Assembly: GCA_037137655.1 (NCBI GenBank)
Contig: JBAXJX010000002.1
Coordinates: 293,730-357,729 of the forward strand
Source: Candidatus Falkowbacteria bacterium
GTDB lineage: Bacteria; Patescibacteriota; Patescibacteriia; Patescibacteriales; UBA12465
DNA: 64,000 nt
Direction of reading: 5' to 3'
Shown: in pieces, positions 4,081-38,605 of the stretch
Numbering within the stretch: position 1 is the first letter of the stretch
How the letters are laid out: each line of letters opens with the position of its first letter
Program-made: the position numbers and the translations under genes
The notes under the pieces: generated by a model
The model's database searches: none
Told to the model about the DNA's origin: nothing
Seen by the model: only the letters and a program-made list of their open reading frames with translations

Positions 4081-4998
4081 ATGAAGAAGACAAAGGTGGT
4101 GGTAATTTTAGGATGTACAGCCAGTGGTAAAACTGGACTAGGCATAAAACTAGCCGATTTATTTGGCGGGGAAATAATTAGCGCTGATAGCCGCCAAGTT
4201 TTTAAAGGTATGAATGTCGGCAGTGGCAAGGATTTAAAAGACTACGTTAACGCTAAAATTCCATATCACTTAATTGATGTTGTTAAACCAAATACTAAAT
4301 TTTCTCTAGCTAAATATCAACGTTTGGCCGAGGCAGCGATTAATGATATTTGGCGCCGCGGGAAATTACCTTTAATTGTCGGTGGCACTGGTTTGTATTT
4401 ACAGGCCGTGATTGAAGATTATAAATTAGCGGATGTAAAAACTGATTTTAAAAAACGGGAAGAATTGGAAGCTTTGTCGCTCGAGGAATTATTCTCACGT
4501 TTAAATTTTTTAAGCCCAGAATTTGCGACCCGATTAAATAATAGTGATCTTAATAATAAGAGACGCTTAGCTCGTTACATAGAAATTTTTTCCCAAGACG
4601 CTGATTTTGCACCGCGAAAATTTACTGCCAACACCAAATATGATTTTTTGTTAATTGGTATTGATTGGCCGATGGACGTCTTGGAAGGTCGCATTCGTCA
4701 TCGCTTAATGGAGCGCTTGGAGAAAGAAGATATGATTGGTGAAGTAAAGCAATTACATCAAGATGGTGTTTCCTGGAAACGTTTGGAAGGTTTTGGATTA
4801 GAATATAAATATGTTTCCTGGTATTTGCAGGGGAAGATGGATTATGAAGATATGGTAGAAAAATTAAATACGGCTATTCGCCAGTTCGCCAAAAAACAAA
4901 AGTCTTGGTGGAAGCGCTGGGAGAAACAAGGAGCTAAGATTAATTGGGTGAATGATTTTTTAGAAGCGAAAGATTTAGTAAAAGGATTTGTAAAATAA
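4081..4998 (+). CDS. miaA: tRNA dimethylallyltransferase MiaA
   Basis: P-loop 'GCTASGKTGLGIKLA', 'ISADSRQVFKGMNVGSGK', 'LIVGGTGLYLQAV'. Confidence 0.9.
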   Translation: MKKTKVVVILGCTASGKTGLGIKLADLFGGEIISADSRQVFKGMNVGSGKDLKDYVNAKIPYHLIDVVKPNTKFSLAKYQRLAEAAINDIWRRGKLPLIVGGTGLYLQAVIEDYKLADVKTDFKKREELEALSLEELFSRLNFLSPEFATRLNNSDLNNKRRLARYIEIFSQDADFAPRKFTANTKYDFLLIGIDWPMDVLEGRIRHRLMERLEKEDMIGEVKQLHQDGVSWKRLEGFGLEYKYVSWYLQGKMDYEDMVEKLNTAIRQFAKKQKSWWKRWEKQGAKINWVNDFLEAKDLVKGFVK

Positions 4999-5001
4999 AA
5001 A

Positions 5002-5028
5002 AGACTTCAATTTTTGAAGTCTTTTTTT
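5002..5028. terminator. bidirectional intrinsic terminator between convergent miaA and pilin gene
   Basis: Perfect 9-bp stem agacttcaa/ttgaagtct with 3-nt loop. A-run on the left and T-run on the right. Confidence 0.8.
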
Positions 5029-5045: not shown

Positions 5046-6188
5046 TTAGTTTCTTAAGCATCGGATAGAGAAGGACACATCACGGGAACTGCCAGCTCTG
5101 TACACTCCGTCATAAGTTCGGCTAACCCGGTAATAGTATGATGTGCCTTGATCTAACTCAGAGTAAGCTGACCACATATAACCATTGTCTCCATAAGCAC
5201 CACCGTTAAAGCCAGAAAGAATAAAATTAAATCCACTGCGACCACAAATATCAGTACCGCTCATATAACAGTCGGAGGCTTGTTTTAAGCTATCAGCAGC
5301 ACCGACGCAACCCCAGCCGCTAATTAGGTCGCAGCTTGTCGGACTGCTGGTGGCTACTAATTCGTGTAATTCGTTATCACTTGGGATATGCCAGCCACTT
5401 GGGCAAATGCCTTGATGTTTTTGATCTATTTTATATGTTTGTCCGCCTAAGCCACATTGGCTACCAGCTGCTTGTAGGTCGGCGTAATAAGCTGAACTAT
5501 TGCAAGCCTTTGGAAATCCCATAGCTTCCGCCCATTGATATAAACTGCCATTAGCAGTGTTGACGAATATTTTTTCTAAATTATTATCATCAGAGAAGTT
5601 CGAATTATTAACGCCGATATTCATATTTGTTTTCATCCAACATTGGGATCCGATTTGAATCGTGCCATAGGTACAAGTATCATAATCTGGTGCTCCGGTG
5701 TTGCAGTTATGCCCTTTGATTGAGGCGATAGTGATTGTTCGTCCACAAGAACTTATGCTTGGGCATTTACCCGGGACAACACCTTTAGGTGTGGCACAAT
5801 TAAGTCCAGAAGCGATATCGCTACTCGTCGCACTTAAGCAAAATTGAAGCTCGTAGCTGCCATTATCTAATTTTTGATAAGCATAATTATCGTTAGCACA
5901 AGCACCATCAGCTTGCGGGGCTGGATTGTTCGGGATAGAAGACATGTAAGTTGTTGATGATCGAGTGCCGAGTAAATCGCCGCCAAAATTTATAGAAGTC
6001 GGGTAGCTTTGTTCGTCACGATAATAATTTTCCAAGACGAGTTGAATTTTTTTAATATCAGTCACGCGTTTAGTGTCGCGCCCTTTGGCGCGGAGCGTGC
6101 TAATGGAAAAAGTGGCAATTGTAATTAAGGTGCCAATAATCGCGACCACCACCAATAATTCGATCAGTGTAAAGCCTCTTTTTTTCAT
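5046..6188 (-). CDS. prepilin-type protein with C-terminal FISUMP (Fibrobacter succinogenes major paralogous) domain
   Basis: N-terminus 'MKKRGFTLIELLVVVAIIGTL' is a class III signal (G|FTLIE, Glu5, hydrophobic helix). The C-terminal ~220 aa carries FISUMP hallmarks 'IGSQCWMKTNMN', 'LYQWAEAM', 'CPSGWHIPSDNELHEL', 'GFNFILSGF', 'GYMWSA'. Confidence 0.8.
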   Translation of the reverse strand: MKKRGFTLIELLVVVAIIGTLITIATFSISTLRAKGRDTKRVTDIKKIQLVLENYYRDEQSYPTSINFGGDLLGTRSSTTYMSSIPNNPAPQADGACANDNYAYQKLDNGSYELQFCLSATSSDIASGLNCATPKGVVPGKCPSISSCGRTITIASIKGHNCNTGAPDYDTCTYGTIQIGSQCWMKTNMNIGVNNSNFSDDNNLEKIFVNTANGSLYQWAEAMGFPKACNSSAYYADLQAAGSQCGLGGQTYKIDQKHQGICPSGWHIPSDNELHELVATSSPTSCDLISGWGCVGAADSLKQASDCYMSGTDICGRSGFNFILSGFNGGAYGDNGYMWSAYSELDQGTSYYYRVSRTYDGVYRAGSSRDVSFSIRCLRN

Positions 6189-6192
6189 AGTA

Positions 6193-7677
6193 TTAATCCA
6201 AATATTTTTTTAATAAATCAGCAACAATTGTAGGATTGGCTTTGCCTTTAGTTTTGGCCATAGTTTGTCCAACGAAGTATTGAAAAATCCCAGTCTTGCC
6301 GCTTTTGTAGGTAGCTACTTGTTCTGGGTTACTGTCGATTACATTTTTAACGATAGCTTCAAGTTCGTCACCACCACCCATTTGTTCTAAGTTTAATTCG
6401 GTCATTAAGTCGCTCGGATCTTTTTTGGTTTCGACCATGGCTTTTAGAATTGTTTGCCCGGCAGAAGAGTTTATTTTATTTTCGTAGAGCATTAATATTA
6501 ATTTAGCAAAATCACCAGCACTTGGTCGCGCCGCAGAATCATATTTTAATAGTTCGCTGGTTATCCAATTACCAGCTAAGGTTGATAGTTTCTGCTCTTG
6601 GCGCACAAAAGAATCACCTTGGGATATGATCCAAGCGTTTAATTCAGAAATAACATTTTCATACCACTCTGATAATTCTTTGTCGTTAATTAAAATCTCG
6701 GCAATTTCTTCGCGCAATTCGTATTCATGAATGAAGCGAGTTTTTTTAGCTTCTGGTAATTCGGATAACTTCGAACGCAAATTTTCTAGTAATTCATCAC
6801 TAATAATAATTGGTGGAATATCTGGTTCAGAGAAGTAGCGATAATCAGCGGAGCTTTCTTTGATGCGTTGGCGCACAGTACAATTTTTATTATCATCCCA
6901 ACCACGAGTTTCTTGCCAAAGTTTTTCATCATCAGCAATAGCTTTAGTTTGGCGCACAACTTCATAGTTAATAGCCTTTTCGAGTGAGCGGAAAGAATTA
7001 ATATTTTTCACTTCCACTTTTGGATTTAATATGGCATCACCAACTGGATCGATGCGACCATCAATATATTGCCAAGAACCTGGAGTTTGAATCGAGATAT
7101 TAGCCTCACAACGCATTTGGCCTTTTTCCATATCGGCATCACTCACGTCGAGGTAACGTAAAATTTGTTGATATTTTTGGCAGAATTTTTTAGCCGTGGC
7201 CGCATCAGGAATTAATGGTTCGGTTACTAATTCAACGAGCGGGGTGCCAGCGCGATTAAAATCAATAAGGGTGTAGTCAGTCCCAGCTGGATGAGATAAT
7301 TTTCCAGTATCTTCTTCTAAGTGAATACGGGTAATTGGAATTTTTTGGTCATCAAATTCTAGTACACCATTATAAACTAACGGTAAGTCATATTGAGAAA
7401 TCTGATAACCTTTTGGAAGATCAGGGTAAAAATAATTTTTGCGATCAAATTTGGAAATCTGGTTAATGTCGCCATTGATAGCTAGACCAATTAAAATTGT
7501 GTCTTCAATCGCTTTTTGATTAGGGCGGGGTAGGGTGCCAGGATGGCCAAGACAAATCGGGCAAACAACAGTATTAGCTGCTTTGCCTTCAGAATTATTA
7601 TTACAAGAACAAAACATTTTGCTCTTAGTTTTTAGTTCGGCGTGGATTTCCAAGCCAATAATTACGTCATATTTCAT
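6193..7677 (-). CDS. gatB: Asp/Glu-tRNA amidotransferase subunit B
   Basis: 'MKYDVIIGLEIHAELKTKSKMFCSC', 'CPICLGHPGTLP', 'NRAGTPLVELVTEP', C-terminal GatB/YqeY domain. Confidence 0.95.
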   Translation of the reverse strand: MKYDVIIGLEIHAELKTKSKMFCSCNNNSEGKAANTVVCPICLGHPGTLPRPNQKAIEDTILIGLAINGDINQISKFDRKNYFYPDLPKGYQISQYDLPLVYNGVLEFDDQKIPITRIHLEEDTGKLSHPAGTDYTLIDFNRAGTPLVELVTEPLIPDAATAKKFCQKYQQILRYLDVSDADMEKGQMRCEANISIQTPGSWQYIDGRIDPVGDAILNPKVEVKNINSFRSLEKAINYEVVRQTKAIADDEKLWQETRGWDDNKNCTVRQRIKESSADYRYFSEPDIPPIIISDELLENLRSKLSELPEAKKTRFIHEYELREEIAEILINDKELSEWYENVISELNAWIISQGDSFVRQEQKLSTLAGNWITSELLKYDSAARPSAGDFAKLILMLYENKINSSAGQTILKAMVETKKDPSDLMTELNLEQMGGGDELEAIVKNVIDSNPEQVATYKSGKTGIFQYFVGQTMAKTKGKANPTIVADLLKKYLD

Positions 7678-8668: not shown

Positions 8669-10501
8669 TTAGTAGACTGGAGCTTCATAACTGGCAATTT
8701 GGCCATCGTTATCAAATTCAAAGTTGCGAACCTCATGTTCTTGTTTTTCAAAGGCTACCATTTCCTTGTTGAAGTTGTTCATGAATTTTTGATCTTCCAT
8801 GCTCAACTTGTCTGGACTGATTTTTTCTAATTTAGCCATTTTAGCAACCACGGCGTGATTAGCCTTGTTCATTAGATCTTGTGCTTTTTCTAATAGATTA
8901 TCAACGGAGATTTCTACAACGCGATTATTTTCATCAAGACCCATTAATAATTTTACTTCTACGCCAGTTTTGGTTGATAGATCTTTAATTGCCTTTAAAC
9001 TGGCAACGCTAACATCTTGAATGGCCTCATCGGTGGCAACTACTAAAACTTGTTTGCCCTCTACTTTTTGACCATGATTAGCTTCTAGAATTTTTTCCAA
9101 AGCGGAAACTGTAGAGCTTAACATTTTTTCGTGAGCATAACCTAGGTTATGCTCAGCTTTAATTTTGTGGCAAGCATCTTTTAGATCACTAGCGTCTTCC
9201 ATGCTGTGTAAGGCGTCGGAGAAGAAACCGATGGCATATTTAGTTGGACTTTTAACATCCTGAATATTTTTTTCAATGTTGTCCGCAATATAATCTTTAG
9301 AATCAAACATGGAACCACTTTTATCAATTAACATTGTGACTTTATCGTAATGTTGTCCAGCTTGAGTTAGGGTAGTTGGATATTCACCAACACCTTCTAA
9401 ATTTAATTTAGTGTAGCGGCATTCTTTTAATAAATCTTGATATTTATCAGGATTGTTAGCTTTGATAGCACTAATTTCGTCGGCGGTATAATGTTGACCA
9501 GTAGCTGGATTGTTTAAATCTGTAAGATAAGTAACTCCAGCTTCGTGGCCATTTCCGCCACTTGGAATTTTTTCTCCAAAAGCTTTGTCTTTTAAGGCTT
9601 TGATCTCAGTATTACTTAGGCCACTGTGAGAAAAATCAAATTTTTCCAAAGCAGTTTGTAGTAGTGGTTTAAGAGAATTAACACGATCATGAGTTAATTT
9701 TTCATTACCACCTTCAATTGGGATCGGTCGTTCATCGCTTGAACCTTCAATTGTCCAATTTGAGAAAGCAAATTGCTTATAATTATCATGATTAATTTTA
9801 GATAAGAAATCATGAAAAGTAGCTTCAATATTTTTTTGATTTTCCGGTGAGATTATGGCTTTGGCAGTTTCAAAGCTATTGCTTAAGTCAATCTTAAGTG
9901 GACCGTTGGCATACTCGTTGTGTTCACCGCTAAGTTTTGGTTCCCATTTGATAGTTTTACCATCAGCGCTTTTGTGAGCATCGGAAGCTTTAACCTCAAT
10001 TTTATTTGGGTTACTTTCTTTGCTAGTGTTGTTTTTGGCTTCACCGGCCATAGCTGGGACGGCGAATTTTAATGATAATAAGGCAAAGATAACAGCGGCC
10101 CGACCCATTTTACCACTTTTTTTCCAGGCTTCTTGGCCTTTTATAATAAAGCCGGCTTGATCATTATTTTTTCCACCATCCTTTAATAAAACGATTTCTT
10201 TTATACTATCGTTAAAATTTTCTAATAAATGGTTAGCATCGTGATCCAATTTAATATTGGCTAAAAAGTCTTCCCAGCTTTCACCGAGATTATTCATAAT
10301 TATTTTATCAAAGTCTTTGTCGCTTAAAGTTTCTAAATTTTCATCACCTAAAGCGTTTACCGCTTCTAGTAAAGAATTTAATCTTATACCGACTTCACTG
10401 ACCTTAGCTTCGATTGATGGTTTTTTTTCGGTAACATTGTCGATGCTAGGAGTAGCTTTTTCGGATTTATTCTCATTTTTTTTTAAAAAGTTCCATTCCA
10501 T
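8669..10501 (-). CDS. membrane-anchored protein with C-terminal von Willebrand factor A-like domain
   Basis: Single TM 'AAVIFALLSLKFAVPAMA' near aa 135-152. MIDAS-type motif 'MLIDKSGSMFDS' and later 'VLVVATDE'. The central segment 'SSDERPI..GNEKLTHDRVNSL' weakly resembles an OmpA-like motif. Confidence 0.6.
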   Translation of the reverse strand: MEWNFLKKNENKSEKATPSIDNVTEKKPSIEAKVSEVGIRLNSLLEAVNALGDENLETLSDKDFDKIIMNNLGESWEDFLANIKLDHDANHLLENFNDSIKEIVLLKDGGKNNDQAGFIIKGQEAWKKSGKMGRAAVIFALLSLKFAVPAMAGEAKNNTSKESNPNKIEVKASDAHKSADGKTIKWEPKLSGEHNEYANGPLKIDLSNSFETAKAIISPENQKNIEATFHDFLSKINHDNYKQFAFSNWTIEGSSDERPIPIEGGNEKLTHDRVNSLKPLLQTALEKFDFSHSGLSNTEIKALKDKAFGEKIPSGGNGHEAGVTYLTDLNNPATGQHYTADEISAIKANNPDKYQDLLKECRYTKLNLEGVGEYPTTLTQAGQHYDKVTMLIDKSGSMFDSKDYIADNIEKNIQDVKSPTKYAIGFFSDALHSMEDASDLKDACHKIKAEHNLGYAHEKMLSSTVSALEKILEANHGQKVEGKQVLVVATDEAIQDVSVASLKAIKDLSTKTGVEVKLLMGLDENNRVVEISVDNLLEKAQDLMNKANHAVVAKMAKLEKISPDKLSMEDQKFMNNFNKEMVAFEKQEHEVRNFEFDNDGQIASYEAPVY

Positions 10502-19785: not shown

Positions 19786-21288
19786 ATGAATAATAAAAAA
19801 GTTAAAGGGTTTACATTGATCGAGCTGTTAATTGTGATCGCGATTATTGGTATTTTGGCCACAATTGCAGTTATTTCTTTGCAGAATGCTCGGGTTAAAT
19901 CTCGTGATGCGCGTCGCTTATCTGATGTTGATCAAATGCAAACTGCTTTAACGCTCTATTATCGTGATAAGGGAAAATATCCAGCTATTAGCGACTTTGT
20001 GGCTGGCGGATCACTGATAGCCACTACGAGCGCTGGCACCGTGACGTACATGGCGCTTATTCCGACCGCACCGACACCAGCCGATGGAACTTGTAGTAAT
20101 AGTGATAATGCTTATCATTATTCTCCTAGTTCTGATTTTAAAAAATACACTATTTATTATTGTTTAGGCGAAAAAACTGCCGATGTTGGGTCCGGTAATC
20201 ATGCTGCGACCAGTGATGGTATAAATGCCGCCCCCGCTTGGAGTCTTTTGGGCGTTTACGATGGTTATGTCTCTGATACGACGGTTGTTAATGGCGTGCC
20301 ATATATTTCTTATAATCTTGGCCCACAAGACGGCTATCATGGCTTTGTAAAAAGATATGTAAATGGTAATTGGGAAAATGTTGGTCTTGGTAATACCGGT
20401 ATTAGTACTGGATCGGCGGTTAGTGTTTACCTTAAAACTGCTGAAAATGGCGATCTTTATGCTTTTTACATTACTTTTGATGGTGGCTCTCACGTGGTCG
20501 CAGCTAAATACACTGGAAACGGTGCGACCGGCTGGGAAGCTTTAGGTGATTCTAGCTTTTTCCCACCTTCAAGCACTAGCTTAACCGCATCATGGACAAT
20601 TAAAAATAATACAGTCTATGCTATTTATAATTATAGTGATGGCAACATTGTAGCAGCTAAGTTTAATGGCTCTAGTTGGGTGCAAATTGGCTCGATTATT
20701 GCAGGAAACTATATTGATATTGCGGGCATTGCGGTTAATGATGATAATGAGGTTTATGTTATGTATCACAAGAAGTCTGATTACGGAATTTATGTTGATA
20801 AGTTTAATTCTGGCACTTCTAGCTGGGAGCATGTTGGTGGTTATGCTGATAGTGACTACGGTTTTTCAAGCCAAGAGCATAATCTTAAAATAGTGGCCGG
20901 AAAACCGTGTGTTTTTAGTCGCGCGCAAGCATACTCTTCATATACTTTGCATGCCATGTGTTCTGACGGCTCATCTTGGGCACCATTGGGGTATAATTTA
21001 AATCCTTATGGTCCATCTGGCTTTGTTTCGACCTATAATCCTTCATATATCTCAGTTGATTATTCTGGCGGTAAGGTCTATGTGGCCTATAAAGACGCTA
21101 ATCAGGATGGAAAAATCAGTATTTTACAAAATGGTCTAAAAACCGGTGAAGAGTGGTCGGAAGTGTCTTATCCTGGTTTATCTGATGGTGTTATTTCAGC
21201 ATCTAATATGTTTATTGATAATTCTGGGGTTCTATATCTGTCTTATAATGATGGCGGTAAAACTTATATTAAAAAGTACGCTCGCTAG
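19786..21288 (+). CDS. prepilin-type protein fused to a ~400-aa repeat (beta-propeller-like) domain
   Basis: 'NNKKVKGFTLIELLIVIAIIGILATIAV' class III signal. The C-terminal region has 6-7 repeats of ~45-50 aa, each ending in '..(Y/F)(N/T)G..W..(V/L/I)G', for example 'VYAIYNYSDGNIVAAKFNGSSWVQIG' and 'VYVMYHKKSDYGIYVDKFNSGTSSWEHVG'. Confidence 0.8.
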   Translation: MNNKKVKGFTLIELLIVIAIIGILATIAVISLQNARVKSRDARRLSDVDQMQTALTLYYRDKGKYPAISDFVAGGSLIATTSAGTVTYMALIPTAPTPADGTCSNSDNAYHYSPSSDFKKYTIYYCLGEKTADVGSGNHAATSDGINAAPAWSLLGVYDGYVSDTTVVNGVPYISYNLGPQDGYHGFVKRYVNGNWENVGLGNTGISTGSAVSVYLKTAENGDLYAFYITFDGGSHVVAAKYTGNGATGWEALGDSSFFPPSSTSLTASWTIKNNTVYAIYNYSDGNIVAAKFNGSSWVQIGSIIAGNYIDIAGIAVNDDNEVYVMYHKKSDYGIYVDKFNSGTSSWEHVGGYADSDYGFSSQEHNLKIVAGKPCVFSRAQAYSSYTLHAMCSDGSSWAPLGYNLNPYGPSGFVSTYNPSYISVDYSGGKVYVAYKDANQDGKISILQNGLKTGEEWSEVSYPGLSDGVISASNMFIDNSGVLYLSYNDGGKTYIKKYAR

Positions 21289-21746: not shown

Positions 21747-22283
21747 TTATAATTTAAATCCAATTTCTTCTCGCGGTTTTTCTTCTTGGACCAGAAGATG
21801 TCGTAAAACTTCAAAAACATCACTTAATTCTTTATCGTATTTAGATTCCATGGCTTCAATTTTATCCCAGATTAATTGATTATTAATGGCTAATTCTCTT
21901 AACTTTATAAAGGTTCGCATTATTTGGATGCTAACATTGATAGCTTTTTCACTTTTTAAAACACAGGACAACATCGCCACTCCCTGTTCTGTGAATACAT
22001 AGGTTTTATATCTTGTACCGCCCCAACTTGAGGTCACAATTTGTGACCTCAAGTTTAAAACTTCATCATTGTCTAAGGAAAACATAAAATCTTCCGGGAA
22101 GCGCTCAATATTTCGTCTAACCGCCTGATTTAATACTTTTGTTTCCACTCCATAAAGCTCGGCCAAATCGCGGTCAATCATTACTTTTTTGCCACGAATC
22201 AAAAATATTCGCCCCACAATGCGTTCACTGGGAATGGCAATAATCTTATTGTTTGATTTTTCTTTGGACATAAATATTTTCAT
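21747..22283 (-). CDS. ORF6N / KilA-N-like DNA-binding protein (phage and mobile-element associated family)
   Basis: 'IFLIRGKKVMIDRDLAELYGVETKVLNQAVRRNIERFPEDFMFSL', 'LRSQIVTSSWGGTRYKTYVFTEQGVAMLS'. Start at Met 22283 or 22271; the ORF-track extension to 22367 runs into the promoter region. Confidence 0.8.
   Translation of the reverse strand: MKIFMSKEKSNNKIIAIPSERIVGRIFLIRGKKVMIDRDLAELYGVETKVLNQAVRRNIERFPEDFMFSLDNDEVLNLRSQIVTSSWGGTRYKTYVFTEQGVAMLSCVLKSEKAINVSIQIMRTFIKLRELAINNQLIWDKIEAMESKYDKELSDVFEVLRHLLVQEEKPREEIGFKL
22025..22055. repeat. 31-bp perfect palindrome (copy 1), inside the ORF6N CDS
   Basis: AACTTGAGGTCACAA-T-TTGTGACCTCAAGTT. It encodes the conserved 'LRSQIVTSSW' motif. About 44 nt including flanks recur in inverted orientation at 23430-23470. 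Confidence 0.9.
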
Positions 22284-22360
22284 TAATTGTAAATGATTAT
22301 AATTATGCCAAAAGTGAGATAAACCTTTTCTAAACAAAAAATGACAAAAATCACCAGATA

Positions 22361-22390
22361 TTGACAAAAAGATTCGGGGGGGGGTATAAT
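22361..22390 (+). promoter_or_regulatory. sigma70-type promoter with a G9 homopolymer in the spacer
   Basis: TTGACA (22361-22366), 18-nt spacer aaaagattcGGGGGGGGG (G-run 22376-22384), TATAAT (22385-22390). It lies 50 nt upstream of the ATG at 22441. Confidence 0.7.
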
Positions 22391-22440: not shown

Positions 22441-23364
22441 ATGGGAATGGAAAATTTTAATGCTCAAGGTTATCGTGATCAACTCGCCAAGGATATTAAG
22501 AGTGAGTCGGATCACGAAAAACGCCAAGAAATTTTGGAAGGTGAGAAAAATACAGTACGTTACGATGTGGCGGAGAATAAAAGTTTTGCCAAACGTGAAT
22601 ATGCAATGAATCAAAATAAAGAGAAAAAAGAAGCTATAAAACAAAAAGAATTAAAAGAATTGGAAATTATTGGGTGTACTACCGAAGAAATCGCTTATGG
22701 ATTAGACAAGGTGAATGAAAAAAAGAAGGTTTATGTTGGTGAATGGAATTTAGAAATTTTTAAAAAAATGCCAAAAAATATAGAACATATTTATACGTCA
22801 TTTCCAGAAGTAAAAATAGTTAAAGAAAATATAAAATTATCAAATAGTACCTCCGAAGAATATTTGGACAAATTAAAAAAAGATGGAATTAAGGTCTCGG
22901 CCTTTGCCGAAGAAGCAATACTTCCAAAAATGCCACAAATAAACGATGGCCGTGTTGTTTCTTTGATCCAATTTTCTATTAGCCAACTAGGTTTTTCTGG
23001 TGATGCTTCTTTGTCTGAGATTTATAAAAAGGCGGTGGAGTCTGGATTGATTTTATGTCCTCCACAGGTTGGACCAGAAATTTGCTTGAAATATAATAAT
23101 AGCCCAATTTGCGAACATTTTAATTATTTGAATATTGCGATGGATCCGGTACCTGACGGTGATGGTAATCTTAATAATACTAATAATGGTATGACACTTT
23201 TTCATATTAATTCACGTGAAAATAATAAACTTGAACTTAATGATATGTATTCAGGTTCAGGAATGGACTATCCTTGGCATAATGGTTCCGCTAATGATTC
23301 CAGTAAATTTGTCTTTTGTGTTTCAGAATCAAAAAAAGCAGATAATGAGAATGTTGAAAAATAA
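22441..23364 (+). CDS. hypothetical protein (307 aa), no recognised domain
   Basis: Long ORF with a Lys/Glu-rich N-terminal third and an Asn/Gly/Ser-rich C-terminus. It has its own promoter and terminator. Confidence 0.7.
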   Translation: MGMENFNAQGYRDQLAKDIKSESDHEKRQEILEGEKNTVRYDVAENKSFAKREYAMNQNKEKKEAIKQKELKELEIIGCTTEEIAYGLDKVNEKKKVYVGEWNLEIFKKMPKNIEHIYTSFPEVKIVKENIKLSNSTSEEYLDKLKKDGIKVSAFAEEAILPKMPQINDGRVVSLIQFSISQLGFSGDASLSEIYKKAVESGLILCPPQVGPEICLKYNNSPICEHFNYLNIAMDPVPDGDGNLNNTNNGMTLFHINSRENNKLELNDMYSGSGMDYPWHNGSANDSSKFVFCVSESKKADNENVEK

Positions 23365-23412: not shown

Positions 23413-23437
23413 GTTTGAGTAATTTATAGAAAGTTTA

Positions 23438-23468
23438 AACTTGAAGTCACAATTTGTGACCTCAAGTT
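23438..23468. repeat. 31-bp palindrome (copy 2, one mismatch), 4 nt beyond the recR stop
   Basis: AACTTGAAGTCACAA-T-TTGTGACCTCAAGTT. On the + strand it reads 'NLKSQFVTSSW' and then hits a stop, so it looks like a relic of an ORF6N motif or a dedicated repeat. Confidence 0.85.
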
Positions 23469-23472
23469 GGAT

Positions 23473-26293: not shown

Positions 26294-27775
26294 ATGGTAA
26301 AAATATTTACAAATTTTAGTGATTTAAAAATTTCTCGAAAAATTTTTTTAACTTTTTTCACGTTGTTTTTTTTAGCAATTACTAGTTTGATTCTCAACAA
26401 CTATATATTTTTTAATGAGGCGGTACATCGCGTCGTTGAAGCTAAGGCGGATTATGGCAATCGGCAGTTTTATAGTGCCATATCTAACCAATTTGACGTG
26501 CTATCAGCTCTCTCAGGCTCAGCCGGTGATGATGCTAAACTCCAGTCTTTATTTATTGCTGGTGATCGTGAAGCTTTGTATTCATACACCAAGCCACTAT
26601 TTGAAACATATAAATTGCGCTATGGAATTTCGGGTTGGTATTTTCTTGATTTAAACGGACAAAGAGTTTTGCGCGTTCAGCAAAAAGATTTATTTGGCGA
26701 CATTGATAATACGGAATTATTTAAGGGGGCGCAATCCAGTTCTGAGGCGGTTTATGGTTTTGGTATGAATGAAAAGGCTTTTTCCTTTCGAGTGGTTTCA
26801 CCTCTAAGTTATCAAGGTAAAGTTGTTGGCTATTTGGAGTTTGAAGAAGGCATTGACGATCTTCTTGCTCGCAGTGAAAAGAACTCTGATTTTAAATTTG
26901 CTTTTATTGCCAACAAGAAATATGTTGATAAAAATAATTTTTTCGTGAGCAAGAAAAAAGCAGCTTCACGTAATAATTGGGGTGATATGCCGGATGATGT
27001 GATGGTTAATAATATAGTTTATTCACCTGATCAAGATCAATGTTTTAGCGAGGACAATGTTAATAGTTTGCAAACGAAAAAGTTCACTTTTCAACAGATA
27101 AATTGGAGTGGTAAGACTGAGGAGTGTGCTGGTTTTTTATTCTTTTCACCCTATTATGAAGACCCTTTTAAGATCCTTTATTTGGTTGATGTGAGCGAAC
27201 AAGTTGGTCTGTTTAATCAAAATATGATCGTTGCTATAATATTTTTATTTATTACTTTGATTTTAGTAACACTGGCGATTGTTCTTGTTTCTCGCATGAT
27301 TACTGCGCCGATGCGTAGTCTATTGTCGGTTATTAGAAATTTTACCAAGGGTGATTTGAAGCGTCGTTTTGATCCGTCTGGTCACGATGAAACTGGTGAG
27401 TTGGGAGTAAATTTTAATTTAATGGCAGATGTTTTGGAAAAAAATAAAGTTGATTTGGAAAAGAAAAATATAGAACTACAAAATATTAATAATGATTTAA
27501 AAAACCAAGATGAAATTTTGGAAAAGAAAGTGGTTGAACGCACAGCCGACTTAATGGCCGAGCGTGACAATTTAGAAAAGAAGGTAACTGAACGTACTAC
27601 TGATTTAACAACCCTTAATAAATCTTTGGAGGAGCGCGTAGCCGAGCGCACAGTTGAATTACAAAAAAAGATTACTGAATTATCAAAGTTTAATCGCATC
27701 GCGGTTAATCGTGAGTTGAAGATGGTGGAACTTAAAAAGGAAATTAAGCAACTCAAAAACACTGATAAATTATAA
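26294..27775 (+). CDS. membrane sensor protein: extracytoplasmic domain, HAMP, coiled coil (no kinase domain)
   Basis: TM1 'IFLTFFTLFFLAITSLILNNYIFF', a ~270-aa external domain, TM2 'MIVAIIFLFITLILVTLAIVLV', HAMP 'APMRSLLSVIRNFTKGDLKRRF..ETGELGVNFNLMADVL'. Then three 'ERT..L' heptad-type repeats and 'NRELKMVELKKEIKQL'. Confidence 0.8.
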   Translation: MVKIFTNFSDLKISRKIFLTFFTLFFLAITSLILNNYIFFNEAVHRVVEAKADYGNRQFYSAISNQFDVLSALSGSAGDDAKLQSLFIAGDREALYSYTKPLFETYKLRYGISGWYFLDLNGQRVLRVQQKDLFGDIDNTELFKGAQSSSEAVYGFGMNEKAFSFRVVSPLSYQGKVVGYLEFEEGIDDLLARSEKNSDFKFAFIANKKYVDKNNFFVSKKKAASRNNWGDMPDDVMVNNIVYSPDQDQCFSEDNVNSLQTKKFTFQQINWSGKTEECAGFLFFSPYYEDPFKILYLVDVSEQVGLFNQNMIVAIIFLFITLILVTLAIVLVSRMITAPMRSLLSVIRNFTKGDLKRRFDPSGHDETGELGVNFNLMADVLEKNKVDLEKKNIELQNINNDLKNQDEILEKKVVERTADLMAERDNLEKKVTERTTDLTTLNKSLEERVAERTVELQKKITELSKFNRIAVNRELKMVELKKEIKQLKNTDKL

Positions 27776-27779
27776 TATT

Positions 27780-29591
27780 ATGCCAGAAGAAATTAAAGAT
27801 GAAAATAATTTGGAAGATAATATTAAGCTTGCTCAGTCTTCTGAACCGGAGGCTTATTTGCTGAAGATTTTGAAAGATGCACAGCAAGAAAAAAAGAGAT
27901 TGGAAGAACAAAAAATCGCTACTCTAAATATTTTAGAGGATATGAGCGAATCACAAGAAGAGCTCCGAATTAAATATCAGGAGGTAAAAATTATCAAAGA
28001 ATTGGTGCAGAGAATTGGCACTAGTTTTGATCCGATGGAAATTATTACCAATATTGCCAAATCGGTTTTGGGTGCTTTGCCGGATATGAAAATCGCTTGT
28101 GTTAATTTTTTGTCATTTGGACCGAACAATGTAAAAACAGTTATGTTTTTTAGTGATGGCGGTATTGGTGTTGATTATATGGCAGCTGTAAAAAACAGCT
28201 TATTTGAATTTATTGGTACCCAAAAAACATTGTTAGCTGATGAATGGACGATGAAGGAATGGAAAAATTATAGTAATATTGAAGCTAAGATTGTGATGGG
28301 CATTGCCGAGATTACTCCATCTTTGCCGGTTAACAGTGTAAATATTCCAATTAATATTGAAGGTTTAATTTCTGGTTTTTTTAATTTTTCCTCACCTCAC
28401 AATTCTATTTCCGATCGAGAGATTAGCTTTTTTTCTGAATTGCTTGATAGCGCCGCTCAAACGGTTGTCCATTTGCGCCAATTAGTTTTTTCTGAGCACT
28501 CTCGTCTGCGTGATTTAATTCAAAGCATGACTAATGGTGTTTTAAGATTTGATAGTGACTGGCTTATTACAGCGGTTAATCCAATTTTTTTGAAGATGGT
28601 GGCAAAGTTGGATGTTGGTTATAACCTTAAAGAATTTTTAGAATATTTTACAGAACAACAACGAGCTGCTACCACCAAAGAACTGGATTTAAAATATTGT
28701 ATTGAAAAAACTTTAAAAAGCGGCCGTCCAACTTTTATTGATGAGGTTTATTTTAATAAGTCGGTTTTTCAAGTTTCAGTTGTGCCGGTACATGATTATG
28801 TTGGTCGAGTTACTGGCGGTGCGATTATTTTACACGATATCACACATATTAAAGAAATCGATCAACTTAAAACAGAGTTTGTGTCCGTGGCTTCACATCA
28901 ACTTCGTACGCCATTAACAGCCATAAAACTTTTTGTGGAAATGCTTTTGGGTGATGACGTTGGCCCTTTAAATGCTGATCAAAGAGATTATCTTACTAAT
29001 ATTCAAGAATCATCTTTACGTATGATTCGTTTGGTTAATAATTTGTTGAATGTTTCTCGCATTGAAACTGATCGTTTAAAAATTGAACCGGAAGATACTG
29101 ATATCGTGGCTTTTGTGACTCAAGCTATTGATGAAATTATTAGTCTGGCCGAACTTAAAAAGTGTAAGATAAAGTTTAATAAGCCAAAATTGGATATAAA
29201 AATTTTATCAATCGATCAAACTTTAATGCATCAGGTTTTTCATAATTTGTTAACTAATGCTATAAATTACTCTAAACCAAGTGGCGGAAATATTATTATT
29301 GAAATGTCTGAAACTCATGAAGATGTTATAATTTCCGTAAAAGATGATGGTATTGGTATTCCACTAATTGCACAAAAGAAAATTTTTCAGAAATTTTTCC
29401 GAGCCGATAATGCCGCTAAAGCTTCAACTGAAGGATCGGGTTTAGGCATGTATGTTGTTAAAATGATTATTGAGGCTTCGGGTGGTAGAATTTGGTTTGA
29501 GTCACAGGAAAATGTGGGCACAGCTTTTTATGTTGCGATCAAAAAAACAGGTATGAGACGGAAGGAAGGGGAGAAGGCTTTGGTTGCCTAA
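27780..29591 (+). CDS. cytoplasmic sensor histidine kinase (GAF/PAS-like N-terminus, HisKA, HATPase_c)
   Basis: H-box 'FVSVASHQLRTPLTAI', N-box 'HNLLTNAINYS', G1 'VKDDGIGIP', G2 'GSGLGMYVV'. No TM helix. Starts 4 nt after the sensor gene. Confidence 0.9.
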   Translation: MPEEIKDENNLEDNIKLAQSSEPEAYLLKILKDAQQEKKRLEEQKIATLNILEDMSESQEELRIKYQEVKIIKELVQRIGTSFDPMEIITNIAKSVLGALPDMKIACVNFLSFGPNNVKTVMFFSDGGIGVDYMAAVKNSLFEFIGTQKTLLADEWTMKEWKNYSNIEAKIVMGIAEITPSLPVNSVNIPINIEGLISGFFNFSSPHNSISDREISFFSELLDSAAQTVVHLRQLVFSEHSRLRDLIQSMTNGVLRFDSDWLITAVNPIFLKMVAKLDVGYNLKEFLEYFTEQQRAATTKELDLKYCIEKTLKSGRPTFIDEVYFNKSVFQVSVVPVHDYVGRVTGGAIILHDITHIKEIDQLKTEFVSVASHQLRTPLTAIKLFVEMLLGDDVGPLNADQRDYLTNIQESSLRMIRLVNNLLNVSRIETDRLKIEPEDTDIVAFVTQAIDEIISLAELKKCKIKFNKPKLDIKILSIDQTLMHQVFHNLLTNAINYSKPSGGNIIIEMSETHEDVIISVKDDGIGIPLIAQKKIFQKFFRADNAAKASTEGSGLGMYVVKMIIEASGGRIWFESQENVGTAFYVAIKKTGMRRKEGEKALVA

Positions 29592-29636
29592 ACTTTTAAT
29601 TTTTGTTAAGATAATAAGGAATAATAAAAAAAATAT

Positions 29637-30011
29637 ATGAAAAACGGACAAGGAAAAATTTTATTAGTCGAGGATGATAAGTTTATTTCTCGCGCTTTTA
29701 AAGACGGCTTGACTCGTGCCGGGTTTGAAGTAATTCAGGCCATGGATGGAGTCGAAGCTTTAGAGAAAGTTAAAACCGAAAGCCCTGACTTGATGTTGTT
29801 GGATTTAATTATGCCAACTAAAAATGGTTTTGATGTTTTGGAAGAAATGAATGCTAAAAATTTAAAAAAATTTCCAGTAGTAATTTTATCAAATTTAGGA
29901 CAAGAGCTTGATATTAAGAGATCTAAAGAGCTCAACGCTGATGATTATTTGATAAAGTCAAACGTGACGTTAAAGGAAGTGGTGGATAAGGCGAAGTCTT
30001 TTTTGAAATAA
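29637..30011 (+). CDS. stand-alone response-regulator receiver (CheY/PilH-like)
   Basis: 124 aa: 'ILLVEDD', phospho-acceptor context 'DLMLLDLIMP', 'VVILSN', 'DYLIKS'. No output domain. Confidence 0.9.
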   Translation: MKNGQGKILLVEDDKFISRAFKDGLTRAGFEVIQAMDGVEALEKVKTESPDLMLLDLIMPTKNGFDVLEEMNAKNLKKFPVVILSNLGQELDIKRSKELNADDYLIKSNVTLKEVVDKAKSFLK

Positions 30012-30035: not shown

Positions 30036-31727
30036 ATGTTGGTAACCAACTCCAAGTTACACGAATTATTAGTCGACCGTGGATATATATCTGAGGCCGA
30101 TTTTAATGCTGCCATAACTCGGGCGGAGGCGGAAAAAAGTAGTGTGGAAGAGGCTTTATTTGGCGCTGATTTAATTCATGACGATCAATTGGGCCGTTTG
30201 GTGGCAGATGATTTTGGTTATCGTTTCATTGAACTCAAAAGAGAAAATATTGATCAAGAAGTTTTTGCCTTAATTCCAGAATCAATGGCGGTGTCTCGTG
30301 GTATTGTGGCACTTGGTCATGATGGAGATTCATTTAAGGTTGGTATGCGCAATCCGGATGACCTAGAAACAATTTCGCTAATTGAAAAACGTTTAGGTGG
30401 ACCGATTATACCATATTATATTACAGCGCGTGATTTTGAAGATAGTGTCTTTAAATATAAAAGTGGTTTGTCTGGTGAGTTTAAGGGAATTATAAAAACT
30501 TTAAAAGATAAAAATACTAAGCGAGAAGTTAAGGATGAGCTAATCGTAAAAATTGTAAATATTCTTTTAACTTATGGTTACAAGGATAATGCGTCTGATG
30601 TGCACATCGAACCTTATGCTAGCAAAATTGTTATTCGCTTTCGTGTTGATGGCGTGATGAGTGATGTTTTGGAAATTCCGAAAGAGTTGGCCGAATTTAT
30701 CGTGGCGCGTATCAAGATTTTAGCGAAGTTAAGAATTGATGAACATCAAACTGCACAGGACGGAAAATTCCGCTATGATGTTGGTGGAGAAGTCTTTGAT
30801 GTTCGTGTTTCCATTTTGCCGGTGAGTAATGGTGAAAACGTAGTGATGCGTTTGTTGTCCGCTAAAAATCGTCAAATTGGTTTGCTTGATTTAGGTTTGG
30901 CGGAAAAAGATTTAAATAAGGTTAAAAAGATGGCAGCCTTTCCTCATGGTATGATTTTGGCGGTGGGACCAACTGGTGCTGGTAAAACCTCCACTCTGTA
31001 TTCTATTTTGAAAATTTTAAACACGCGTGATGTTCATATCTCCACGATTGAAGATCCAATTGAATATAATATTGAAGGTATTTCGCAAATTCAAGTTAAT
31101 GCCAAGGCTAAGTTAACTTTTGCTAAAGGTTTGCGTTCTATTTTGCGTCAAGATCCGGATGTGATCATGGTCGGAGAAATTCGTGATGAAGAAACGGCGG
31201 ATATCGCTATCAACTCAGCTTTGACTGGTCACTTGGTGTTATCAACTTTACATACCAATAATGCTGTTACTTCTGTGCCACGTTTGATTGATATGAAAAT
31301 CCAACCATTTATTTTGGCTTCGACTATGAATTTGGTTATTGCTCAAAGATTGGTGCGTAAAATTTGTGAAACCTGTCGCGAATCTTATGTGGCTGATGAT
31401 GCTACAGTGGAATTAATTCACACTGATCCGCTTGTCGAAGAAATTTTGAAAAATACTGGACACAAAGATTTTAAGAAAATTCGTTTTTATCGTGGCGCTG
31501 GTTGCCGCGCTTGTAATAATAGTGGCTACACTGGTCGTATCGGTGTTTTTGAGGTTTTAGAAATTAGTCCTAAGATTAAAGATTTGATTTCCAAGCAAGC
31601 CTCAGATGATGAAATTATGGTGGTGGCTAAATCAGAGGGCATGACCACGATGTTAGAGGATGGTGTTAATAAAGCATTAAACGGTTTAGTGTCGCTAGAA
31701 GAGGTGATTAAGAATGTTAAAGAATAA
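30036..31727 (+). CDS. pilB: type IV pilus assembly ATPase PilB (GspE family)
   Basis: N-terminal T2SSE_N-type domain, Walker A 'VGPTGAGKTSTLYS', 'RQDPDVIMVGEIRD', tetracysteine 'CETC..CRAC'. Confidence 0.9.
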   Translation: MLVTNSKLHELLVDRGYISEADFNAAITRAEAEKSSVEEALFGADLIHDDQLGRLVADDFGYRFIELKRENIDQEVFALIPESMAVSRGIVALGHDGDSFKVGMRNPDDLETISLIEKRLGGPIIPYYITARDFEDSVFKYKSGLSGEFKGIIKTLKDKNTKREVKDELIVKIVNILLTYGYKDNASDVHIEPYASKIVIRFRVDGVMSDVLEIPKELAEFIVARIKILAKLRIDEHQTAQDGKFRYDVGGEVFDVRVSILPVSNGENVVMRLLSAKNRQIGLLDLGLAEKDLNKVKKMAAFPHGMILAVGPTGAGKTSTLYSILKILNTRDVHISTIEDPIEYNIEGISQIQVNAKAKLTFAKGLRSILRQDPDVIMVGEIRDEETADIAINSALTGHLVLSTLHTNNAVTSVPRLIDMKIQPFILASTMNLVIAQRLVRKICETCRESYVADDATVELIHTDPLVEEILKNTGHKDFKKIRFYRGAGCRACNNSGYTGRIGVFEVLEISPKIKDLISKQASDDEIMVVAKSEGMTTMLEDGVNKALNGLVSLEEVIKNVKE

Positions 31728-31744: not shown

Positions 31745-32920
31745 ATGGCAAAAGAAATGTCCGCACAAAATATTGGTTCGGCCGACTCCTCGGCTAGTGG
31801 ATCGTTTTCAAGCTCGGCAAAAAAATTAGCAGCACCAAAAGAACATAAATTGGAAAAAATGTTTAACATTAATCTTGGTGGCGGCAAAGTTAATATTTCT
31901 CAAAAAGCGGTTTTTGCTAAAAATATGGCGATCATGTTGCGCTCTGGTTTAAATATTTCTGAAGCCCTAGATATTATTGCCAGTTCTTCTTCGGGATATT
32001 TTAGAAAAGTTATCATGGATATTTATGAATCGGTTTCTTCTGGTAATTCTTTTTCCAATTCTTTGGCGCGTTTTCCAAGAATTTTCTCAGGCATGTTTAT
32101 TAATACAACTTATGCCGGTGAATCGTCTGGTACTTTAGAGGCTAACTTTGAAGCAATTGCTGTTCAACTTGAAAAAGATAAAGAATTATCTTCTAAAATT
32201 AAGCAGGCTTTAATGTATCCAGTTATTGTGTTGGTGGCCGCTTTGGTTTTGGGTTTAGGTATTTCATTTTTTGTCTTACCGCAAATTGTGGTGTTGTTTC
32301 AGGGTATGCGCACTGAATTGCCACTGTCCACTCGAATGTTAATTGGTTTTGCTGATTTCATGCGTAACTATGGTGGAATTTTTATTATTTTTTTAATGGT
32401 GTTTGCTATTTTTATGGCGTGGTTATTGCGTCAGAAATTTGTTAAACCATTTACTCATGCTCTCGCTTTAAAAACTCCAATCATCAGTGGTCTAACTCGT
32501 GGTGCAAATTTATCTCATTTTTGCCGCAACTTAAGTTTGTTGTTACAGAGTGGTATTAGTATTGATCGTTCTCTTAAAATTACTAAAGATACTTTGAGTA
32601 ATTATTATTATAGTAAGGCAGTAGAAGAAATTTCTTCTCGGATTAGTAAGGGTATGTCACTTTCTGATGATTTGCGCCAATACCAAAATTTATTTCCGCC
32701 GATGATGATTAAAATGATTATGGTGGGTGAACGCTCTGGCCAAATGGAAGATACTTTAACTTATCTCTCTAATTTTTATGAAGGCGATGTGGATACTTCC
32801 GCTAAAACCTTAACGGTGATTATTGAACCGATTCTACTTTTATTTATTGGTGCGATTGTCGCCTTTTTAGTGTTATCAATTATTACTCCGATTTACAACG
32901 TGACCGGCAACATGAAATAA
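31745..32920 (+). CDS. pilC: type IV pilus platform protein PilC (GspF family)
   Basis: Two T2SSF-type repeats ('FAKNMAIMLRSGLNISEAL', 'FCRNLSLLLQSGISIDRSL') and three TM helices. Confidence 0.9.
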   Translation: MAKEMSAQNIGSADSSASGSFSSSAKKLAAPKEHKLEKMFNINLGGGKVNISQKAVFAKNMAIMLRSGLNISEALDIIASSSSGYFRKVIMDIYESVSSGNSFSNSLARFPRIFSGMFINTTYAGESSGTLEANFEAIAVQLEKDKELSSKIKQALMYPVIVLVAALVLGLGISFFVLPQIVVLFQGMRTELPLSTRMLIGFADFMRNYGGIFIIFLMVFAIFMAWLLRQKFVKPFTHALALKTPIISGLTRGANLSHFCRNLSLLLQSGISIDRSLKITKDTLSNYYYSKAVEEISSRISKGMSLSDDLRQYQNLFPPMMIKMIMVGERSGQMEDTLTYLSNFYEGDVDTSAKTLTVIIEPILLLFIGAIVAFLVLSIITPIYNVTGNMK

Positions 32921-37670: not shown

Positions 37671-38183
37671 ATGAAAAACAAAAACGGATTTACACTAGTC
37701 GAGACCATGGTCTACATTGCGATTTTAAGTATGGCTATGGTTGGTTTTATTACTTTTGTCATGTCGATTTCCGCGGCTCGTAATAAAAATTATACGGTAT
37801 TGGAAGTTCAAGCTAACACCAGACAAGCGATGGAAATAATTAGTCAAAAAATTCGTGATGCGGCTGATGTTAAAATTGCCTCCTCAACTTTTGGAAGTGA
37901 TCCGGGAAAATTAACTTTAATTACGACCAACACTTCAACTAATCCAACGGTGATTGATTTAACTACTCAAGATGGATCATTGCGCATTACGGAAGGGACA
38001 AGTAGTCCGATAATTATTACGGCCAATAAAGTTTTAGTAAGCAATTTAGTTTTTTATAATTATACTGGCACTAGTCGACGTGACAGCATTGGGATTGCGG
38101 CGACGTTCTCTTATTATAATCCAGGTAACGATATTGATTATAATTTTTCTCAGTCAGTTCGTTCCAATATTAGTTTGCATTAA
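37671..38183 (+). CDS. prepilin-type minor pilin
   Basis: 'KNKNGFTLVETMVYIAILSMAMVGF' (G|FTLVE). 170 aa. Confidence 0.8.
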   Translation: MKNKNGFTLVETMVYIAILSMAMVGFITFVMSISAARNKNYTVLEVQANTRQAMEIISQKIRDAADVKIASSTFGSDPGKLTLITTNTSTNPTVIDLTTQDGSLRITEGTSSPIIITANKVLVSNLVFYNYTGTSRRDSIGIAATFSYYNPGNDIDYNFSQSVRSNISLH

Positions 38184-38191: not shown

Positions 38192-38605
38192 ATGAAAATA
38201 ATTAATAAAAATAAATCTGGAGTTATTGCTTTGATGATGGTGGTAATAATTGGTGCCGCCGCTTTAGTGATGGCCTATGCTGCCTCCTTTTTAAGTTTGG
38301 GGAATTTAACCACTTCTTATGATGCGCACAACGGTAGCGAAGTTTATTCTATGTCTGATGGTTGCGTGGAGACGGCCATGAAAAAATTTCGTTTAAATCC
38401 TGGAACATACACTGGTGAAACTTTGAACTTTTCTTCTGGCTCATGTATAATAAGTATTAGCGGTTCTGGTGCGACACGCACTATTACTTCCACGGCGACT
38501 CGCGGCAATTATACCGCGATTCTTGACGTCGTTATTTCTTACTCCACCGGAACTTACGGTGAAACAATCGTTACTGTAAATTCCTGGACAGAGCGAGAGA
38601 ATTAA
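38192..38605 (+). CDS. minor pilin-like protein lacking Glu5 (PilX/GspK-position)
   Basis: N-terminal hydrophobic helix 'SGVIALMMVVIIGAAALVMAYAA' with no conserved Glu. 137 aa. Position is in the minor-pilin block. Confidence 0.55.
   Translation: MKIINKNKSGVIALMMVVIIGAAALVMAYAASFLSLGNLTTSYDAHNGSEVYSMSDGCVETAMKKFRLNPGTYTGETLNFSSGSCIISISGSGATRTITSTATRGNYTAILDVVISYSTGTYGETIVTVNSWTEREN

Follow-up and report, generated by a model that had tools for sequence, protein, structure and literature searches.

Modular pilins, in which a full pilin module is joined to a distinct second module, were defined by Raynaud et al. in 2021 (PNAS, PMC8179133). Dataset S1 of that study lists the combination of a prepilin motif with a FISUMP domain (IPR012902-IPR011871) as the fifth commonest architecture, with 40 proteins, behind the commonest combination, that with LamG (IPR012902-PF13385), with 229 proteins; several of the representative modular pilins in that study come from Patescibacteria (PMC8179133). 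The present analysis concerns such a gene at positions 5046-6188 (reverse strand) of a 64-kb stretch of the genome of a Candidatus Falkowbacteria bacterium (contig JBAXJX010000002.1), hereafter the window. It encodes, from an ATG start to a stop codon at 5046-5048, a modular type IV pilin of 380 residues consisting of a prepilin leader, a pilin 'carrier' and a FISUMP module. The first-pass annotation had proposed that the pilin N-terminus serves here as a display or secretion handle; both the pilin-FISUMP architecture and this strategy are already in the literature under the name of modular pilins. The earlier survey only catalogued the architecture, with 'no clear function' for the module (PMC8179133), and did not describe two features reported below as modest new observations: the polymorphism of the chromosomal slot, which holds a bare, a FISUMP or a LamG pilin in different relatives, and the setting of the genes among housekeeping operons.

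The closest experimental precedents are PilB and PilC of Streptococcus sanguinis, in each of which an independently folded module (vWA in PilB, a ConA-like lectin in PilC) is grafted onto a pilin moiety. Both are minor pilins shown experimentally to be adhesins and modelled at the pilus tip, and PilC binds sialylated glycans and glycosaminoglycans (PMC8179133, PMC9934059). The genes for these proteins lie in the pil locus, whereas the window protein, known from its sequence, carries a FISUMP module and is encoded by an orphan gene after gatB. Within the Patescibacteria, type IV pili and minor pilins with large accessory domains mediate host binding by Saccharibacteria; PilX2 of strain TM7x is needed for efficient binding, and glycan binding has been proposed for it (PMC11623550). 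PilX1 and PilX2 resemble the window protein in bearing large C-terminal accessory domains, but these have jelly-roll-like and beta-propeller folds and are encoded within type IV pilus loci. A third point of comparison is provided by Legionella LdtA, a target of a diversity-generating retroelement (DGR) in class 'd' of the CLec2 domains, and by the C-terminal domain of the Legionella adhesin Lcl (DUF1566, PDB 8q4e), which recognises sulphated glycosaminoglycans (PMC11162425). These belong to a related family, are surface-exposed and carry a C-terminal variable or ligand-binding region. The window protein differs from them in having a pilin anchor in place of a lipid or a collagen-like stalk and in lacking a DGR template repeat or reverse transcriptase, and no structural similarity to them is statistically supported (E≥0.39).

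The window protein is identical to P0001, recorded at NCBI as 'FISUMP domain-containing protein [Candidatus Falkowbacteria bacterium]'. Pfam and NCBIfam searches identified a prepilin motif at its N-terminus (PF07963 N_methyl, 32.6 bits against a cutoff of 21.2, residues 2-25; TIGR02532, 33.1 bits against a cutoff of 16.3) and a FISUMP domain in its C-terminal part. The latter was matched by TIGR02145, whose InterPro entry we take to be IPR011871 (82.5 bits against a cutoff of 41.65, E=5.5e-23, residues 170-380, profile positions 7-176 of 176), and by PF09603 Fib_succ_major (61.2 bits against a cutoff of 33.9, residues 177-379, profile positions 1-187 of 187). With both scores above the curated cutoffs, the FISUMP assignment made in the first-pass annotation withstood the search that it had itself proposed. 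The strings it had quoted are all present, KRGFTLIELLVVVAIIG at residue 3, CWMKTNMN at 183, GWHIPSDNELHEL at 265, GFNFILSGF at 319 and GYMWSA at 336, and its description of the protein as Cys-rich agrees with a total of 16 cysteines.

The leader peptide MKKRG (residues 1-5; 6174-6188, reverse strand) is followed by FTLIELLVVVAIIGTLITIA, giving a basic leader, Gly at -1, Phe at +1, Glu at +5 and a stretch of approximately 20 hydrophobic residues. Prepilin peptidase is predicted to cut after Gly5. In an alignment of 72 homologues, to which all conservation values below refer, Phe+1 (F6), Leu+3 (L8) and Glu+5 (E10) are invariant and most residues of the alpha1 helix are nearly so, as expected if selection acts on filament assembly.

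The carrier was delimited to residues 6-145 (5754-6173, reverse strand) from the structure model, profile matches, a free-standing orthologue and cysteine conservation. An AlphaFold model of the full-length protein, built with the 72 homologues (predicted local distance difference test (pLDDT) 89.8, predicted TM-score (pTM) 0.75), places a helix at residues 8-59, followed by a head built of beta-sheet and by a further domain. The carrier has a hydrophobic alpha1N, a long alpha1 and strands at residues 80-82, 103-106, 112-118, 128-133 and 136-139, and is thus predicted to adopt the lollipop fold of pilins, with alpha1 on an antiparallel beta-sheet. The family profile matches solved pilins and GspG over its first ~120 positions (7tgg, 1.3e-19; 5wda, 3.4e-15). 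Cys97 and Cys117 are 90% conserved, and Cys131 and Cys142 form a terminal pair confined to one subclade. On the model and these matches, residues 6-145 are a complete GspG-like pilin and more than a signal peptide or helix. The first-pass description of a FISUMP domain hanging on a pilin helix is thus correct as to the prepilin signal but too narrow as to the fused part, which is a whole pilin domain that also exists as a bare protein of 145 residues (P0121). Identity with GspG, the major pseudopilin of the type II secretion system, was considered and rejected: TIGR01710 gave 38.1 bits against a cutoff of 88.85, over residues 4-65 only. The window open reading frames (ORFs) that were scanned include no secretin gene.

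The FISUMP module occupies residues 146-380 (5049-5753, reverse strand), as judged from TIGR02145, PF09603, the model and Foldseek, and contains 12 cysteines and the core CG...QCW...CPSGWHIP...RC. Modelled in isolation it is predicted with confidence (pLDDT 90.9, pTM 0.89), and in the models it is a separately folded domain joined directly after the last cysteine loop of the pilin. Conservation is 94% or higher at C148, C183, C262 and C377; the eight remaining cysteines of the module are lineage-specific and come in neighbouring pairs. Q182, W184, C262, P263, W266 and C377 are invariant. The paired cysteine pattern fits extracellular disulfides. As in the FISUMP proteins of Fibrobacter and Bacteroidota, the domain is matched end to end by the C-terminal 235 residues and the Cys/Trp core is kept; the window protein differs in that its export and anchoring device is a complete pilin. 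FISUMP-family proteins often carry an N-terminal lipoprotein signal (PMC5758913), the place of which is taken here by the prepilin signal and pilin module. Because that signal is not a defining feature of the domain, its absence leaves FISUMP membership intact.

Structure searches and sequence variability were used to consider what the module may do. Against predicted viral structures, Foldseek returned phage proteins annotated as FISUMP (E=2.3e-8 and 4.9e-5), followed by weaker phage DUF1566 proteins. Against the PDB, neither the full-length model nor the isolated module gave a match at E<0.1; the top non-significant neighbours were 4eps, a Bacteroides fimbrial protein (E=0.39), and the Lcl C-terminal domain (E~1), and the weak matches to the module included many C-type-lectin-like domains, with TM-scores of 0.44 or less. 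A C-type-lectin-like fold for the module is drawn from the literature, and the PDB neighbours are no more than suggestive of it. Among the target domains that DGRs diversify, Fib_succ_major, DUF1566 and DUF823 together make up the CLec2 class, and Fib_succ_major/DUF1566 is established as a scaffold for ligand binding (PMC5758913, PMC4159848). In such targets the variable regions overlap the Fib_succ_major/DUF1566 motifs in the C-terminal part (PMC5758913). In the pilin-FISUMP family, the most variable ungapped stretch is residues 351-370 (YYYRVSRTYDGVYRAGSSRD; 5079-5138, reverse strand), which has a column entropy of 2.95-3.10 bits with close to 0 gaps and lies just before the invariant C-terminal strand. 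This stretch is a candidate ligand-contact surface and probably contributes to binding specificity. Given the phage and DUF1566 structural matches, the membership in a DGR target class, the example of Lcl and the variable 351-370 stretch, ligand binding appears to be the best reading of the role of the module.

The FISUMP domain family itself is far larger than its name suggests, with 25,778 representatives matching at E≤1e-30 in the protein representatives library, among them giant proteins of up to 7786 residues with 10-12 tandem copies. The exhaustive search of the representatives was swamped by these multi-FISUMP giants and yields no count of the pilin-FISUMP fusion. PF09603 and PF07963 occur together in 95 of the 120 best homologue clusters, the named members being Falkowbacteria, Patescibacteria or "bacterium". 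The survey of relatives for this architecture, which the first-pass annotation had called for, was thus positive. The source genome (0.97 Mb) contains at least five pilin-FISUMP genes, namely the window gene, three at locus L001 and one at L003, and at least seven carrier-type genes. A contig profile search with the family alignment found no new full-length fusion and returned almost only half-matches, either Planctomycetota pilin N-termini or Bacteroidota FISUMP domains, which makes it unsuitable as a wide survey of context.

The gene lies where the first-pass annotation had placed it, adjacent to gatB (6193-7677, reverse strand; PF02934, PF02637): its start is 4 nt past the end of gatB. The convergent gene miaA (4081-4998, forward strand) marks the other edge of the slot. 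Between the pilin gene and miaA is a bidirectional intrinsic terminator (4989-5027) with a 14-bp stem, a folding energy of -14.2 kcal/mol (z=-6.06) and a U-run; its hairpin begins 18 nt past the end of the pilin gene, and a similar terminator follows the final pilin gene in the pil locus. No terminator-like site was found from 6516 to the pilin start, and no convincing promoter between gatB and the pilin gene; the promoter-like matches on the pilin strand are weak (9/12) and fall inside the 3' part of gatB. As no convincing promoter separates the two genes, the pilin gene is likely co-transcribed with gatB, and its translation is likely coupled.

Comparison with related loci shows that the content of this slot varies. 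In the window it holds the carrier and a FISUMP module (380 residues). In L091 (miaA 86% identical) the same 4-nt junction is followed by P0002, whose carrier is 75% and whose FISUMP module is 56% identical to those of the window protein. In L090 (gatB 84% and miaA 81% identical), again after a 4-nt junction, the slot is occupied by P0121, a bare pilin of 145 residues with 65% identity, which ends three residues beyond the equivalent of Cys142, the point at which its homology to the window protein stops. In L087 (gatB 58% identical) it holds a carrier (44% identical) with a LamG module. The synteny of L090 with the window extends over more than 15 genes, through dCMP deaminase, thyA, dihydrofolate reductase, tmk and gatB, then miaA, miaB, PMT_2 and DUF3160. 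The DNA of the two aligns in two blocks, between which ~786 bp of the window stand against 33 bp in L090; this indel covers the final codons of the carrier, the FISUMP module in full and the terminator. No remnant of FISUMP was detected at the L090 slot in the DNA-level alignment. The bare 145-residue orthologue, the clean ~786-bp indel and the other occupants of the same slot demonstrate directly that the carrier suffices as a pilin by itself and that the effector module is an add-on, both separable and exchangeable. The two parts required of a modular pilin, a full pilin module and a distinct separable one, are both present in the window protein, with the bare orthologue ending at the boundary and the isolated module modelled at a pTM of 0.89.

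The bare orthologue was revealed by a homologue search with the carrier alone. This search returned only short proteins, without even the query's own cluster, and is unusable for listing the effector modules found on this carrier type. A second bare carrier (P0123) and a fusion truncated by the contig end (P0122) were also found; bare carriers are 145-148 residues long. By miaA identity L091 is the sister of the window (86%) and L090 is slightly more distant (81%), with the P0122 carrier about equidistant from all three; parsimony somewhat favours a loss of the module in L090 over a gain. The L087 carriers on LamG and FISUMP are 61-84% identical to each other though their effectors differ, and are 40-47% identical to the carriers of the window lineage (window, L091, L090, P0122 and P0123). 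This pattern implies module exchange, gene conversion, or both. Since the L087 carriers are closer to each other than to those of the window lineage, strict orthology between the gene in the L087 slot and that of the window need not hold.

A second orphan modular pilin, of 500 residues, is encoded at 19786-21288 (forward strand); its carrier is of the type found in the FISUMP pilin (44% identity over residues 2-137). Its C-terminal module of ~350 residues is unrelated to FISUMP; it belongs to no Pfam family, showed only a sub-threshold match to NHL repeats and has no PDB sequence match outside the pilin part. The carrier of ~140 residues is 44-45% identical across the FISUMP, 19786-21288 and LamG proteins compared. 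The proposal in the first-pass annotation that the pilin N-terminus displays varied modules is therefore borne out for one carrier type, found with FISUMP, with the unknown module and with LamG. The inclusion of the LamG pilins holds for the LamG carriers of relatives and fails for the two in the pil locus, at 32928 and 34412, whose pilin moieties are unlike the carrier.

The pil locus is remote from the gene, as had been stated, with ~24 kb between the FISUMP pilin gene and pilB. It comprises, all on the forward strand, a pilB-type assembly ATPase (30036-31727; PF00437 T2SSE, 416 bits, with MshEN), a pilC-type platform protein (31745-32920; PF00482 T2SSF, 198 bits), two LamG pilins (32928-34403 and 34412-37663), a small minor pilin (37671-38183), an unknown ORF (38192-38605), a PilM-like protein (38615-40342; PilM_2, 99.6 bits) and four paralogous PF07963 pilins of ~162 residues (40462-40947, 40966-41466, 41471-41971 and 42078-42566). 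The latter are 46-72% identical to one another and are candidate major pilins. The window thus contains three classes of pilin: the small paralogues, the heterogeneous minor pilins of the pil locus, and the orphan modular pilins with a GspG-like carrier.

Two further observations were made at the pil locus. Just upstream of pilB (26294-30011, forward strand) are genes for a dCache/HAMP protein, a PAS-HisKA-HATPase histidine kinase and a stand-alone response regulator, a two-component system that is a candidate regulator of the pilus locus; a similar arrangement is present in L088 (2247-5047). The product of 34412-37663 is a pilin-like protein of 1083 residues with an atypical N-terminus (AMSLVEL) and two LamG domains, and its gene contains an internal tandem duplication of ~1.14-1.17 kb (repeat families D4, D9-D11 and D15).

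Taken together, we consider it fairly probable that the gene encodes a minor modular pilin that is processed by PilD, assembled by PilB/PilC/PilM, probably displayed at the tip, and presents the FISUMP module as an adhesin. After transcription with gatB and translation by coupling, the protein would insert into the membrane, where a prepilin peptidase whose gene would lie in another part of the genome would cut after Gly5. The alpha1N helix and Glu+5 would then allow the PilB/PilC/PilM machinery (30-42 kb) to take the protein up as a pilin of low abundance; because of its bulky 25-kDa module it would most likely sit at the filament tip. There the FISUMP module, whose fold would also be used in virion or tail-type proteins of phages and in DGR-diversified surface proteins, may bind a ligand, probably a glycan, at the surface of a host cell or particle. 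This genome has a repertoire of such pilins (at least five with FISUMP, together with LamG and the unknown module), the module at the gatB slot being gained, lost or exchanged among relatives.

Several points weigh against this proposal. The gene sits outside the pil locus. BLASTP found no match between the ~162-residue pilins and the carrier, which is unrelated beyond alpha1N to these four candidate major pilins, so that co-assembly is an assumption; the pilin moieties of the pil-locus minor pilins (32928, 34412 and 37671) are likewise unrelated to it beyond alpha1N. The tip location is an analogy. No prepilin peptidase (Peptidase_A24) gene was found in the 64-kb window of this 965-kb genome; at four other loci (L012, L018, L038 and L050), Peptidase_A24 genes adjoin carrier-type pilins, which lends circumstantial support to processing by PilD. 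The C-type-lectin-like fold lacks statistical support against the PDB even at the best neighbour, 4eps, and we know of no ligand for any FISUMP domain.

The orphan position of the gene, inside a housekeeping operon and far from the pil locus, and a carrier unlike the pil-locus pilins would also suit a protein that uses its class III signal and alpha1N for export and membrane anchoring without entering a filament. Such use has been proposed for the sugar-binding proteins of the archaeal 'bindosome' and for many N_methyl proteins of Planctomycetota and Verrucomicrobiota; in the contig profile search the N-terminal motif alone was common to hundreds of planctomycete and verrucomicrobial proteins. 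Here, however, a full pilin head with conserved disulfide cysteines is kept beyond the helix, Glu+5 is invariant in the homologues, the bare-carrier orthologues resemble ordinary pilins, and PilD genes adjoin carrier-type pilins in other Patescibacteria, and we regard display without a filament as unlikely. More doubtful still is a second type IV filament, in which the GspG-like carriers would polymerise among themselves, independently of the pilins at 40-42.5 kb, into a short fibre or pseudopilus decorated along its length. The bare carriers (145-148 residues) are of major-pilin size, the best solved relatives of the carrier are major pilins and GspG, the source genome has its seven or more carrier-type genes, and Saccharibacteria do assemble two distinct type IV pili (PMC11623550). 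But the window has a single PilB/PilC set, no bare carrier was seen in the inspected parts of the source genome, the GspG model TIGR01710 scored only 38 bits, and a 25-kDa module on every subunit would be sterically hard to pack, an argument made for modular pilins in general (PMC8179133).

The module might instead be an enzyme delivered by the pilus, for example a cell-wall or glycan hydrolase, given that predicted peptidases are among the modules found on some modular pilins (PMC8179133) and that FISUMP function has never been put to the test. No catalytic family was matched at E≤1 in Pfam or NCBIfam, though, the conserved residues (Cys, Trp, Gly and Pro) are typical of a structural core, and the weak structural neighbours are lectin-like or receptor-binding proteins; we consider an enzymatic role very improbable. 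The poorest prospects are those of a DGR variable protein, in which mutagenic retrohoming would rewrite the C-terminal part of the module, on the pattern of CLec2 targets such as LdtA. Patescibacteria are rich in DGRs, Fib_succ_major/DUF1566 is a recognised target class, and the stretch in which the family varies most lies towards the C-terminus of the domain. Nevertheless, nothing resembling a template repeat of the gene, or of a part of it, is present in the window, nor is there any direct or inverted repeat pairing with 5046-5760, the shared pilin N-terminus (I1) being the sole repeat that touches the gene. The gene is directly followed by a terminator, without a GC-rich element resembling the initiation of mutagenic homing sequence. 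Neither the window ORFs that were scanned nor the gene tables of related pilin-FISUMP loci with flanks of ±8-10 kb contain a reverse transcriptase (RVT) domain. With neither a pair of template and variable repeats nor a reverse transcriptase, a DGR target was rejected for this window.

The pilin-FISUMP genes are scattered and run in the same direction as the housekeeping genes before them, which are gatB in the window, RNase J and FtsH in L001 and rplK-rplA in L087; in L006 they lie between fusA and tuf. This placement suggests constitutive expression by read-through. As a tentative extension, and one that we hold with some doubt, the gatB slot may be one locus of a genome-wide, cassette-like adhesin system, in which the carrier is re-equipped by recombination (with no module, FISUMP, LamG or others) and expressed constitutively behind gatB, RNase J, FtsH, rplA and fusA/tuf. 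If so, strain-level variation in host or particle specificity would be expected, along with a route to adhesin diversification in episymbiotic Patescibacteria that does not involve DGRs.

Other carrier-type loci showed further arrangements. In L087 (7703-12146; NCBI GCA_026396835.1), three genes for FISUMP proteins and one pilin-LamG gene directly follow secE-nusG-rplK-rplA; a prepilin motif was recognised in 2/3 of the FISUMP proteins, and 3/4 of the carriers in the row were compared and are 64-68% identical, with differing effector folds. A tandem pilin-FISUMP pair lies in the str operon of L006 (8001-10230; JGI 3300076002 Ga0645779_00060), between fusA (EF-G) and tuf (EF-Tu); L006 is from another Patescibacteria genome of ~0.9 Mb, and a third pilin-FISUMP copy there adjoins comEC (156-1214). 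In the source genome, 2.4 kb without a called gene (L003, 9432-11809) lie just downstream of the paralogue P0028.

Elsewhere in the window, a 52-nt intergenic element is present in five copies (46877-46928, 48610-48661, 49526-49577, 50127-50178 and 59208-59259) and ends in a terminator-like hairpin (AAAAAAGCTACTATTTTTGCAGATAGTAGCTT); two of the copies are 98% identical including the upstream GGCTACGGCGGGTGAAAT. A 42-nt inverted repeat (22023-22064 and 23429-23470, 90% complementary) surrounds ~1.4 kb in which there is a 307-residue ORF without a Pfam match (22441-23364) and in which an ORF6N/Rha-like gene (21747-22367) starts, and this segment may be invertible or mobile. A protein of 610 residues (8669-10501, reverse strand) has no Pfam match and a vWA-like motif of the metal ion-dependent adhesion site type (LIDKSGSMFDS); L090 has a 589-residue gene (5752-7521) at the equivalent position. 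Two divergent ClpB-like AAA+ proteins of 880 and 882 residues are encoded less than 5 kb apart (51762-54404, reverse strand, and 56537-59185, forward strand) in what is a very small genome, the second with a weaker and rearranged N-terminal half. Genes of the surface or interaction type include those for a RhuM/Fic-domain protein (47540-48595, forward strand) and for a 767-residue PF09826 Beta_propel protein (61303-63606, forward strand; 515 bits).

Patescibacteria rely on attachment to other cells, for which type IV pili are the best-supported device, and the adhesins that set their host specificity are largely unknown. The pilin-FISUMP family is a concrete and abundant adhesin candidate, judging from its share of the best homologue clusters and from the five or more copies in a single genome of less than 1 Mb. 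The occupation of one syntenic slot by bare, FISUMP and LamG pilins provides a ready comparison of module grafting and could link the type of module to host range. It may also offer a way to the first ligand for the very large and functionally uncharacterised FISUMP family.

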